Shown here piece by piece: positions 29,879-31,934 of a stretch of 64,000 nucleotides of DNA (the first letter of the stretch is position 1; each line of letters opens with the position of its first letter). The position numbers and the translations under genes were made by a program. The notes under the pieces were generated by a model. That model ran no database searches, had not been told where the DNA came from, and was given only the letters and a program-made list of their open reading frames with translations. The stretch is from Cenarchaeum sp. (lineage in GTDB: Archaea > Thermoproteota > Nitrososphaeria > Nitrososphaerales > Nitrosopumilaceae): NCBI GenBank assembly GCA_963692915.1, contig OY843584.1, forward strand, positions 288,001 through 352,000. Direction: 5' to 3'.

Positions 29879-30430
29879 TTATTTTATAATTTGCTTAATG
29901 ATGTGGTGTTTTAAAGTTTCTAGCGTTTGTTTGGATTTTGCTCCAGTTATGACTATTTTTCCTGACGAAAATATTAAAAAACACGCATTTGACTCATCAA
30001 GACTAACGCGATACACTATTCCAGGGAATTTTTTAACGTCATAATTGGCACCGTCAAGGATTTTCACTGCTTGCATTTGATCAATTTTTTGCCCGAGATC
30101 TAAAACAGCTGTTGTGTTGACAATTTTTGTTGAATGAGCTTCATATTTCTTGCCCATGGCCTTGGAAATCTCATCTACAGCTGATAATATCCCACAATCG
30201 AATTTTCTGATGTCGCTAATCCCGGTACTGACAATCCTTCCGGTTTGAAAAAGAATGACAGTGCATTTGGGAACCACTGGTCTGTATATTACACCCGGAA
30301 ATAATTCTGGTTCGTATAACGTACTTGGTAAACGCATTGCGACAAGCTCTGTGTTAATTGGCCGTATATTGGCTGATGTCACTACATTCACAATTTTAAA
30401 TTGATGCTGCGATATTCCACTATTTCTCAA
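29879..30430 (-). CDS. tbp: Divergent TATA-box-binding protein paralog
   Basis: Two TBP repeats: KIVNVVTS/YEPELFPGVIYR/ILFQTGRIVSTG and KIVNTTA/FPGIVYRV/LIFSSGKIVITGAKS; AT-rich. Confidence 0.92.
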   Translation of the reverse strand: MRNSGISQHQFKIVNVVTSANIRPINTELVAMRLPSTLYEPELFPGVIYRPVVPKCTVILFQTGRIVSTGISDIRKFDCGILSAVDEISKAMGKKYEAHSTKIVNTTAVLDLGQKIDQMQAVKILDGANYDVKKFPGIVYRVSLDESNACFLIFSSGKIVITGAKSKQTLETLKHHIIKQIIK

Positions 30431-31112
30431 TTTGTTCCCTGACCATTTTGCATAATTCTGGTATGTCTAAAATTCTTCGTACAAACTCTTTTTTATTATA
30501 AGTTGCATCTTTCTTAAAACGATTTAAAATCTCATCATAGTTTAATCTCAATAGTTCACAAAATTCTTGTCCAGTCATAGCTTGTTTTATGTCAATCCGG
30601 CCTTTGAATCCTGTGACAATTTCATCATGGGTCTTGGCCATGAAAGAACACACATAATCCTCAACTGTAAACGACATTCGAGTTCCCAACATATTTTTTA
30701 TTTCTGACAGGGACTCTACTTCACCCTGTGCTTTTTTTGTGTCAAAGTTCATTCCTAGTTTCAATTCGATCACTTTACACTCACGTGTTGATGTTAAAAA
30801 TACTATGAAGTCTGGTTCGGCTTTTTTGGCCCGTAATTTGCGTGATTTTTTTACAATTTTCTTTGAAAGCAGCATTACTTTGCCTTCGTATTTTTCTATT
30901 CCATTATCTGAGTTGCAGTTTTCAATGAATTCGTCAAAATCTTTTATTAATATGCCTGCCTTTTCACATTCTTCTAAAACTGTTTTTTCTAATGAGGTGC
31001 CCATCTTTATCATTGCTGAATGTGTATCTGTAATAAGTTGTCCCAGGCATCTGTTGGCAAATATGTGGATATAATTTCCGGTGCGTTTGCCAACTTCCAA
31101 TTTTACCATCAT
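30420..31112 (-). CDS. Putative type II restriction endonuclease (PD-(D/E)XK)
   Basis: EPDFIVF...VIELKLG motif with an upstream LE helix; immediately downstream of a methyltransferase. Confidence 0.75.
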   Translation of the reverse strand: MMVKLEVGKRTGNYIHIFANRCLGQLITDTHSAMIKMGTSLEKTVLEECEKAGILIKDFDEFIENCNSDNGIEKYEGKVMLLSKKIVKKSRKLRAKKAEPDFIVFLTSTRECKVIELKLGMNFDTKKAQGEVESLSEIKNMLGTRMSFTVEDYVCSFMAKTHDEIVTGFKGRIDIKQAMTGQEFCELLRLNYDEILNRFKKDATYNKKEFVRRILDIPELCKMVREQIEK

Positions 31113-31934
31113 ATATCCTCCGTTTTAACCTTGACCACATCGCATCCCAGGAACGTGCGGTTTGTGTTAATGCAGGCACGTAAAACACTGTATCCTCCTG
31201 CAGCGGGGTCAACAATAACTCCCCCCCCCCCCTCCCGGGGTTATGGCCTCGATAAGGCGCTCTTGAAGCTTAATTGGTTTGCTGTGTGTGTGATTTTTAC
31301 TGTGGATTTTTTCTGACCAAACATCCCTTATGCCATGATCGCGCCATACGTCTTTTGCTTTCTTTGGCAGTTTTTGCAAAATAATTAGGTGCTCTGAACA
31401 CCGCCGTGTCCTATATCCCATGCCAATGCGCTGTTTGTCCCACGTTATCATGTCAACAATCTCAAATTCTAATCCCTTAATCCATGCTGATATCCCATTG
31501 CATAGGTGAAATTTATCCACCCATAAGAACAAATGGCCACTGGGAACAAGCACACGTTCAAGCTCCCACAAAAATGTCGATATGATTGACTCGTCCATCT
31601 GTGATAGTGATGCCCTTGCTCTCCCACGAGATTTTCCCTCATTCCCATACTTCATCTTGTCTAATATGCCCCTATACTGTGGATCCAAAAAAGCGGCATC
31701 AACCGTCTTGTCATCAAGCATGCGCAACATGTCCAACCCGTCCATTTTGTTTGTCTTGTTTAAGAGATGTCGAACTTTGTTCAGGCTTGTTTTATGTGGT
31801 TTTTGGCCAATCGTGCATCTAGTCCCAAATACAGTTTTTGGCGTGGGTTTTTGCATAGATTCATGCACATGTTTTGCGCGTCTTGGCCTTTTTTTTGGCT
31901 GTAGCTTTGACTTGAGTTTCATCCACCCTTTCAA
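31109..31934 (-). pseudogene. Beta-class N6-A/N4-C DNA methyltransferase, frameshifted at a G12 tract (phase-OFF allele or sequencing error)
   Basis: DGLDML, FLDPQY (motif IV), ITWDK, HSKP; after the tract another frame gives [12 protein letters not shown]...RTFLGCD (motif I) ending in TGA at 31109-31111. Confidence 0.85.
31221..31232 (-). repeat. G12 homopolymer inside the methyltransferase gene
   Basis: C12 on the + strand; no comparable run noticed elsewhere in the window. Confidence 0.95.

Follow-up and report, generated by a model that had tools for sequence, protein, structure and literature searches.

The locus and its genomic setting

The 64,000-nt window analysed here (the whole stretch of DNA, positions 288,001 to 352,000 of contig OY843584.1 in the Cenarchaeum sp. 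assembly GCA_963692915.1) contains an AT-rich islet of 2.3-2.4 kb in which three genes follow one another on the minus strand: a DNA methyltransferase, a candidate restriction endonuclease and a paralog of the TATA-binding protein (TBP), a general initiation factor (Table 1). Probably this islet is a type II restriction-modification cassette, acquired horizontally, in which the methyltransferase gene is prone to slippage and at present OFF and a highly divergent TBP, its two repeats probably swapped, travels along as a co-expressed passenger. The strand, the gene order and the AT-rich surroundings had been put forward in an original prediction made from the sequence alone, and all three were borne out by the drop in GC content and by open reading frames (ORFs) that agree with it to the nucleotide.

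Table 1 Features of the islet, in window coordinates
Feature	Position	Strand	Basis or remark
AT-rich inserted islet, three genes	about 29866..32128	-	GC profile, synteny, contigs of other samples
Divergent TBP paralog, 183 aa, two repeats	29879..30430	-	PF00352
Type II restriction endonuclease candidate, 230 aa	30420..31112	-	PD...ExK motif, weak fold matches, neighbouring methyltransferase
Methyltransferase, C-terminal part in the next frame (motif I, ...LGCDV)	31109..31219	-	Translation
GGAGG, possible ribosome-binding site, in the 3' end of the methyltransferase gene	31117..31121	-	4 nt upstream of the nuclease ATG
Methyltransferase, N-terminal 5/6 (ORF of 241 aa)	31209..31934	-	Beta-class N6/N4, motif IV 'DPQY'
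G12 homopolymer (C12 on the plus strand) inside the methyltransferase gene	31221..31232	-	Sequence
Possible TFB-recognition (BRE)/TATA element GAAAGAA-TTAATAT	31955..31968	-	By eye, in AT-rich DNA where such words are common

The genome around the window is a single contig of 1.64 Mb with 59.4% GC. Because archaeal AmoA is encoded in it (389 bits) and McrA was looked for in it and not found, the host is, on its predicted gene content, an ammonia-oxidising thaumarchaeon; a methanogenic host was ruled out on the same two grounds. A total of 46 low-GC islands and 11 matches to the methyltransferase family PF01555 were counted in this genome, which indicates that AT-rich foreign DNA and methyltransferases are common in it. 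Over about 29.8-32.0 kb of the window the GC content falls to 0.34-0.46, against 0.59-0.66 on either flank. The GC content at third codon positions (GC3) is 0.32 in the nuclease gene, 0.32 in the TBP gene and 0.46 in the methyltransferase gene, compared with 0.75-0.78 in host genes.

The borders of the foreign DNA were mapped by synteny. Homology to the closest genome, G201, whose flanks are 89-92% identical in nucleotides to those of the window, ends at about 29705 and restarts at about 32128. In two other genomes of the genus, G202 and G204, the RPA gene is directly joined to window position 32134 or 32192, and a further lineage, detected in public sequencing runs, has 29735-29865 in common with the window and diverges at 29865, 14 nt before the TBP stop. 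These breakpoints place the left edge somewhere within about 29705-29865 and the right edge at about 32128. The synteny breakpoints, together with the divergence at 29865, indicate that the three genes act as one block and agree with the insertion between RPA and the locus of a non-coding RNA (ncRNA) and an Lrp-like gene that had been proposed. Islet DNA was found in none of the four other genomes of the genus. In G201 the site is occupied by a different gene, for a 986-aa protein (L067 5684-8644) with a metalloprotease-like word ('HEVGH') and a hydrophobic, anchor-like C-terminal tail, which suggests that the cargo at this locus swaps between strains; in all, at least three alternative contents of the insertion spot were found. 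No integrase or transposase gene is present in the islet, which has three ORFs only, no direct or inverted repeats were found flanking its borders, and no tRNA gene lies near it, the nearest being about 7 kb off. Judged by these features, the islet appears to lack what would define an autonomous mobile element, namely an integrase or transposase and terminal repeats.

A type II restriction-modification pair

The methyltransferase gene likely starts at ATG 31922-31920 or at TTG 31934-31932, and the possible BRE/TATA element lies 36 nt upstream of the former and 24 nt upstream of the latter. Its product matches the Pfam family N6_N4_Mtase (PF01555, E 3.4e-7) and a PHROG DNA methyltransferase family (1.9e-12). 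Homologues were found at 74-59% identity, one of which, at 59%, bears the name 'modification methylase hhaII' in its source. As assembled, the gene is interrupted: motif IV ('FLDPQY') is read in the main frame and motif I ('VIVDPAAGG') in the next one, the main frame breaking in the G12 run and stopping at TGA 31211-31209 just after it. The remainder of the protein, read in the next frame, can be aligned with the C-terminal ends of intact homologues (P0283, P0285, P0384 and that of the host-family genome G184) and ends at TGA 31111-31109, which overlaps the ATG of the nuclease (ATGA, 31112-31109). The overlap that the original prediction had drawn between a 'restored' methyltransferase stop and the nuclease start therefore exists, with the proviso that the gene is out of frame in the assembly.

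By its motifs and homologues the enzyme is assigned to the beta-class N6/N4 methyltransferases of the HhaII/HinfI/CcrM-like group, in which 'DPQY' (motif IV) likewise stands ahead of 'DPAAGG' (motif I). The target of this group is presumably GANTC. For the islet enzyme itself GANTC is a lead, taken from the naming of the 59% homologue, and not a result. The genome contains 6143 GANTC sites with no sign of avoidance (observed/expected ratio, O/E, 0.998), which fits a recent arrival of the islet. Protection of the genome by a second methyltransferase of the same subfamily was also considered and dropped: none was found by tblastn at E<=1e-3, the specificity of the 10 other PF01555 matches not being typed.

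The nuclease matches no Pfam, NCBIfam or PHROG family; a search of 1.84 billion representative proteins gave 335 relatives at E<=1e-3. The residues P100-D101 ... E111-x-K113 / E116-x-K118 are invariant in all nine aligned sequences (9/9). The AlphaFold2 (AF2) model has an alpha/beta core and a mean predicted local distance difference test score (pLDDT) of 85.7. Foldseek gave none at E<=1e-3 among the matches listed, the best being PspGI (E 8e-3), and the weak matches are nearly all PD-(D/E)XK nucleases (PspGI, N.BspD6I, viral cap-snatching endonucleases, Can2, Card1, Hjc and MunI). The invariant motif and the trend of the fold matches support the earlier assignment of this candidate endonuclease to the PD-(D/E)XK nucleases. 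A relative from a second strain (P0001, 95% identity) has its frame open, and some of the changes between the two proteins are non-conservative (E>G, R>L, E>K).

The distribution of the nuclease family was surveyed by a scan of one genome per prokaryote species, which yielded 59 loci, mostly in bacterial metagenome-assembled genomes (MAGs), 11 being from DPANN archaea. At 27 of the 59 loci, in widely differing bacteria, a methyltransferase 49-64% identical to that of the islet lies on the same strand, directly upstream of the nuclease in 24 cases and downstream in 3. A metagenome scan with the nuclease gave one distant relative at 24% identity. Among 400 other genomes of the host family the pair was found in G184 and G601, and fragments in G199 and G349. 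One TAA interrupts the nuclease of G601, and the G199 fragment has two. The G184 pair (L065, G184:C1:924367-927942) is intact, with overlapping genes for 234 and 229 aa at about 36% GC, and adjoins two transposase-like ORFs. Relatives on Campylobacter conjugative plasmids bear the annotations 'DNA methyltransferase' and 'restriction endonuclease'.

From these homologies, the first two genes of the islet are an ordinary, widespread type II restriction-modification pair that was horizontally acquired, with cutting and methylation as their predicted activities. Like the known type II pairs, they have the methyltransferase followed by the nuclease on one strand, a stop/start overlap and a patchy distribution across phyla and plasmids. 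Unlike them, the islet has a nuclease without a curated family, a methyltransferase with a long G run that is out of frame, and a TBP gene after the nuclease. The original idea of a mobile defence module stood up in part. Horizontal acquisition of the pair is supported by the 27 loci, the Campylobacter plasmids and GC3; the mobile and defensive parts are not, given that integrase, transposase and repeats are missing and that the out-of-frame methyltransferase makes a defence function doubtful in this genome.

A variable G tract in the methyltransferase gene

A tract of G11 or G14 would put the methyltransferase in frame, and G12 leaves it out of frame. The length of the tract was compared between assembled contigs of public runs, of which the library types are unknown. 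X1 (depth 120) has G12, as in the window, with 0 other differences over 2253 nt. In X4, another sample of the same study (depth 49), the tract is G10 with 0 other differences over 2094 nt. A weaker observation from another study, X5, gave G15 with 0 other differences over 1905 nt, and the contig of X6 ends within the tract. The tract therefore differs in length between samples with identical flanks, and all three lengths seen (G12, G10 and G15) are OFF. The same position is affected in relatives: three of the four closest homologues examined (P0279, P0280 and P0281, with 74, 73 and 67% identity) break off there, immediately behind GGGG, and the fourth (P0283, 76% identity) reads through the tract in frame.

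Long G/C runs are in excess throughout the genome. It has 15 runs of 10-26 nt but only 3 of 8-9 nt. By composition about 140 runs of at least 8 nt and about 1.1 of at least 12 nt would be expected, and 12 runs of at least 12 nt are present. PF01555 genes contain or adjoin four of the long runs, and several others lie just upstream of genes for proteins of 815-900 aa with signal-like N-termini. The other 14 long runs lie at genome positions 21144, 151307, 203807, 280081, 419733, 647452, 656965, 1122850, 1124573, 1126657, 1309677, 1521639, 1523591 and 1631617.

In sequence terms the G12 run looks like a phase-variable tract that is currently OFF, and the long G/C runs of the genome look like a repertoire of contingency loci in a thaumarchaeon. 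As in the phase-variable genes of Helicobacter, Campylobacter, Haemophilus and Neisseria, a long homopolymer lies within the coding frame and differs in length between populations with identical flanks; the genome-wide set of runs at genes for methyltransferases and secreted proteins also resembles that of host-adapted bacteria. The differences are that the organism is a thaumarchaeon, that no ON state was seen in this lineage, and that the switch lies in a type II methyltransferase whose partner nuclease is a separate protein, so that an OFF state should be dangerous. According to one abstract, archaea too are on record as having contingency loci, and another paper treats homopolymeric tracts across prokaryotes; the principle is thus not new.

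The state of the tract raises the question of how an OFF methyltransferase can coexist with an intact nuclease. It is possible that the nuclease is silent or inactive, that the frame is intact in a minority of transcripts or cells, or that the pair is decaying. A further explanation, that the frameshift silences the nuclease by breaking translational coupling, was weakened by the GGAGG that precedes the nuclease ATG and was dropped. On a rival explanation the islet would be a decaying relic with a dead pair, the frameshift being tolerated because the nuclease is inactive or silent, and with selection acting on the TBP alone or on none of the genes. This explanation partly overlaps with the preferred one and, taken by itself, is doubtful. 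It would account for a methyltransferase out of frame in X1, X4, X5 and three of the four homologues, for GANTC sites that are frequent and not avoided with no back-up enzyme of the subfamily found, for the decay of the family relatives in G601 and G199, and for the non-conservative nuclease changes relative to P0001. It is at odds with a nuclease frame that is open in both strains with every catalytic residue kept, with the in-frame clade member P0283, and with the nature of the break, which lies exactly in a long homopolymer, recurs in the clade and varies in length between identical flanks, as is typical of reversible switching.

An artefact of assembly, either a chimeric join or a homopolymer sequencing error that created a false frameshift, hardly seems credible. 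The sharp change in GC and the position of the frameshift in a 12-nt homopolymer, a classic site of sequencing error, would invite that explanation. Against it, the right junction is crossed by contig 6 of X1 (29908-32160) and the left one by contig 16 of X5 (31404 down past 29500), contig 13 of X4 (29908-32003) lies inside the islet, and a variant at 93-95% identity is present on a separate 115 kb contig. In addition, the tract length differs between the runs at depth 49 and 120, and in three independent homologues the reading frame is lost at this tract as well.

A complete but extremely divergent TBP

The third gene encodes a protein in which both repeats of the TBP family are recognised (PF00352, E 1.5e-34). 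The overlap of 11 nt with the nuclease gene that had been noted originally was found between the nuclease stop (TAG 30422-30420) and the TBP start (TTG 30430-30428). No other in-frame start would retain the first beta-strand of the TBP, and the weakness of this TTG suggests that translation is coupled to that of the nuclease.

The host genome has two TBP genes, which differ markedly in their scores: 102+99 bits per repeat for the core TBP and 64+57 for that of the islet, with 33% identity between the two. TBP is present in 61 of 61 genomes of the host family, most of which have 2-5 genes (4-11 repeat matches per genome), and the other family TBPs listed reach about 97-108 bits per repeat. Each of two other genus genomes searched has a single TBP gene. 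No TBP more than 36% identical to that of the islet was found in 300 other genomes of the order; the tallies of 61 and 300 genomes include the unpublished genomes G235 and G303, respectively. In a collection of 5.8 billion proteins the only close relative was P0009, at 93%, and the next best match had 38% (best 120 of 308 listed). All 10 NCBIfam models of archaeal TBP scored below their cut-offs, the best with 111.7 bits against a cut-off of 181. The low identity to the host core TBP and the lack of a closer TBP in these 300 genomes of the order support the conclusion that the islet gene is not a vertically inherited core TBP.

The divergence has left the fold in place. The AF2 model (pLDDT 93.6) shows the S1-H1-S2-S5-H2 pattern twice and superposes on solved TBPs with template modelling (TM) scores of 0.80-0.89 and a root-mean-square deviation (rmsd) of 1.4-2.7 A. 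Conservation was assessed in an alignment of 34 sequences, made of 32 hand-picked matches, the islet TBP and the core TBP. The residues F44, F61, F135 and F154, which we take to be the DNA-kinking phenylalanines, are kept in the islet protein, with F61, F135 and F154 in invariant columns and F44 in a nearly invariant one. Of the roughly 26 columns that vary little or not at all, four are changed in the islet TBP (K65R, V107T, E131D and E133K). Its 12 differences from P0009 are mostly conservative and fall outside the conserved core. Both the alignment and the predicted model thus portray the islet protein as a complete, well-folded and extremely divergent TBP.

Additional TBP genes are familiar in archaea; haloarchaea have multiple TBPs, some of them on megaplasmids. 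The islet TBP resembles such paralogs in being a second gene beside the core one and in having two repeats, the saddle fold and the phenylalanine positions. It differs from them in its score per repeat, in an identity of at most 38% to any TBP other than the 93% relative among the matches listed, in repeats that look swapped, in the stirrup 'YDVKKFPG' and in its location in a foreign restriction-modification operon.

A probable swap of the repeats in the islet TBP

Alignment with TBPs of solved structure pointed to an unusual order of the two repeats. For 34 of 35 solved TBP sequences, the best-scoring stretch pairs the first repeat of the islet TBP with the second repeat of the solved one, and with Pyrococcus TBP the crossed pair of alignments is returned outright by HMMER. 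Cross-validated hidden Markov models (HMMs) of the repeat halves were built from TBP matches of 172-200 aa (63 of the 119 proteins P0010-P0128). The score of the collinear arrangement minus that of the swapped one was +1.9 to +133 bits in these 63 canonical TBPs and -9.8 to -14.2 bits in the islet TBP in all three folds (3/3). A second measure, column log-odds, was derived from 60 archaeal TBPs, which comprised 30 of the 63 with [FY]P[GAS] in the first 80 residues and 32 from L072-L107, identical sequences being removed. The first repeat of the islet TBP scored -26.6 (second-repeat-like) and the second +20.0; when canonical TBPs were left out one at a time, their first repeats were positive in 59/60 (minimum -7.4) and their second repeats negative in 57/60. 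The signal is spread along the repeat and is not limited to the stirrup.

A FastTree phylogeny of single repeats, in which supports are only of the Shimodaira-Hasegawa (SH)-like type, gave the first repeat of the islet TBP a sister group formed by the second repeats from two Asgard-type proteins (support 1.0) and nested the second islet repeat in a clade made up of 58 first repeats and 8 second ones (support 0.90). These two TBP-like proteins, P0026 and P0054, one of which is named in its source as coming from a Lokiarchaeia MAG, have 'TGL..' in repeat 1 and 'STGIS' or 'LTGIR' in repeat 2 instead of 'TGAK'; their second repeats are the nearest to the first repeat of the islet TBP.

The stirrups tell a similar story. 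The islet TBP has 'YEPELFPG' in repeat 1 and 'YDVKKFPG' in repeat 2, where 'YEPEQFPG' is nearly invariant, an arrangement that is consistent with swapped repeats. Residues E131 and E133 belong to nearly invariant columns of the 34-sequence alignment, and the canonical acidic C-terminal stirrup, presumably the contact for TFB/TFIIB, is absent from the islet protein. On balance these sequence patterns make a true reversal of the repeat order somewhat probable. The alternative is a near-symmetric, fast-evolving TBP in which the repeat-specific signal has drifted; three canonical TBPs have half-HMM differences of only +2 to +6 bits. No TBP with reversed repeats was met in the literature searched.

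Relationship between the TBP and the restriction-modification pair

The overlapping frames and the GC3 of 0.32 in both the nuclease and the TBP genes indicate that the TBP was transferred together with the pair. In the original prediction the TBP could act as controller, guide or shield the nuclease at TATA-like DNA, or compete with viral promoter use. That the TBP is a recurrent part of this restriction-modification system is not supported by the neighbourhoods of related genes. No TBP was found near any of the 59 nuclease-family loci, the 11 archaeal ones included (+-8 kb where the contig allows), nor within +-1.5 kb of the family pairs in G184 and G601. Conversely, neither this methyltransferase nor this nuclease was found near a TBP at 70 TBP loci, of which 35 came from the host family or order (+-1.5 kb) and 35 were IMG/VR contigs (+-5 kb). 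No restriction-modification operon with a TBP is described in the literature searched. Among the loci examined, the association of TBP and pair is, as far as these sequences indicate, confined to this lineage.

Size data on source contigs give a view of loci beyond those examined. The relatives of the nuclease and of the TBP in the second strain, P0001 and P0009, each have a largest contig of 115411 bp, and P0005 and P0281 have one of 3779 bp each, equal size being a weak proxy of co-location. None of the TBPs listed (120 of 308) shares its largest-contig size with P0002-P0006, which is no proof of absence.

If the TBP took a functional part in restriction, it would be an archaeal counterpart of the C protein, one that drives or times an AT-rich operon in its new host or tunes the nuclease. 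The resemblance to C-protein systems is that of a small DNA-binding transcription protein in an operon with the methyltransferase and the nuclease. It extends to the arrangement on the same strand, with the 11-nt overlap and a GC3 equal to that of the nuclease, to the insertion of the three genes as one block, and to the retention of nuclease and TBP in the second strain (P0001, 95%; P0009, 93%). The DNA-binding residues are kept, the modelled fold is intact and the islet has no helix-turn-helix (HTH) controller gene that could fill the role, the TBP being its only extra gene. Unlike the C-protein systems, the islet has neither an HTH protein nor a C-box. The protein is a general initiation factor, which would give little promoter specificity, and it comes last in the operon. 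Controllers usually precede the nuclease gene. The association is not conserved at the other loci, and the methyltransferase is OFF in every sample seen. A controlling function for the TBP is therefore unlikely.

A direct interaction, in which the TBP binds the nuclease and steers, shields or inhibits it, is very improbable. A precedent for a PD-(D/E)XK-fold protein tied to TBP exists in Tk-TIP26 of the Thermococcales (PDB 2CZR), a member of a TBP-interacting family with this fold according to PMC3424549, and adjacent, overlapping genes are compatible with a protein pair. Tk-TIP26, however, is not in a restriction-modification pair and has no sequence or fold match to the islet nuclease among the matches listed (2CZR is not in the 44 Foldseek rows, with ranks to 49, for the nuclease model). 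Moreover, the great majority of the nuclease family is from bacteria and needs no TBP, and no conserved co-occurrence was found; binding in the islet is a conjecture from gene adjacency. A complex prediction for nuclease and TBP gave scores of 0.00 and 0.00 with no controls run and counts neither for nor against binding.

Origin of the cassette and weight of the evidence

The preferred explanation, a horizontally acquired cassette with the TBP as passenger, would comprise the following steps. A cassette of about 2.3 kb was taken up from an AT-rich archaeal source into a strain-variable spot of a GC-rich thaumarchaeon. The G run in the methyltransferase gene would slip in length, so that the gene shifts between reading frames in a contingency-like manner. 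Most likely the TBP gene shares a transcript with the pair, and its translation is coupled to that of the nuclease. The TBP is probably no built-in component of the restriction system; most likely it is an accessory general transcription factor travelling with the pair from the donor.

Several observations weigh against this explanation. The closest relatives of the nuclease (P0002-P0006, 58-64%) and of the methyltransferase (P0279-P0281) lie outside the loci read, and a TBP beside them is possible. The 11-nt overlap, the weak TTG start and a GC3 that is equal in nuclease and TBP are to be expected of genes that have long belonged to one operon, and less often of chance neighbours. The ON length was never seen in this lineage, so that reversible switching is what we infer from three OFF lengths, and these lengths come from contigs of unknown library type, that of X5 at a depth of only 3.9. 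An intact nuclease with its own GGAGG beside an out-of-frame methyltransferase fits a live system poorly, as do the unavoided GANTC sites in a genome where no second methyltransferase of the subfamily was found.

A bolder version would see the islet as a transferable archaeal operon that brings its own repeat-swapped, circularly permuted TBP. The TBP and the slippery G tract would then together set the timing of expression in a new host, as a basal-factor version of a controller, and the protein would be the first natural TBP with reversed repeats. Taken as a whole, this version is decidedly speculative.

The restriction-modification pair itself is ordinary, and the noteworthy parts of the locus are the odd TBP that travels with it and the repertoire of G tracts. 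A TBP has moved horizontally in a 2.3 kb cassette, and it is more diverged than the other TBPs found in the search of 5.8 billion proteins (best 120 of 308 listed). The travelling TBP suggests that archaeal mobile DNA can bring its own initiation factor. Reviews of archaeal viruses assume the use of host factors (PMC5569661). The reversed repeats, if confirmed, would provide a natural test of whether the polarity of TBP depends on which stirrup binds TFB. Long G/C runs at genes for methyltransferases and secreted proteins, at least one of them variable in length between samples, point to contingency switching of a bacterial style in Thaumarchaeota.

Neighbouring features of the window

On the left side of the variable spot, two adjoining paralogous ORFs on the plus strand (29152-29433 and 29434-29682, 93 and 82 aa) encode small membrane proteins. 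Each product has a single hydrophobic stretch and a tail rich in Arg and Glu, in which 'ERDA(K/D)R' words recur. G201 has both ORFs, and G202 and G204 lack them.

On the right side, a block on the plus strand (32131-32396) begins exactly at the islet border and lies upstream of a 79-aa Lrp/AsnC-like ORF (32397-32636). It is about 99% identical to G201, far better conserved than the neighbouring genes, and has a TATA-like 'TTAATAT' at its start and another such element ('TTGATATA') just before the Lrp/AsnC-like ORF. RNAalifold on four genus members gave 54 pairs, 6 of which have compensatory changes. Rfam gave no family in 26000-36000 at the gathering threshold and none in 31800-32500 at E<=1. 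The conservation pattern suggests that the block may be an undescribed ncRNA or structured leader.

Elsewhere in the window, ARAGORN predicted a tRNA-Tyr with anticodon ATA (91 nt, 38939-39029) and a tRNA-Cys with anticodon ACA (94 nt, 53864-53957); their lengths suggest intron-containing genes of which the anticodons were misread.

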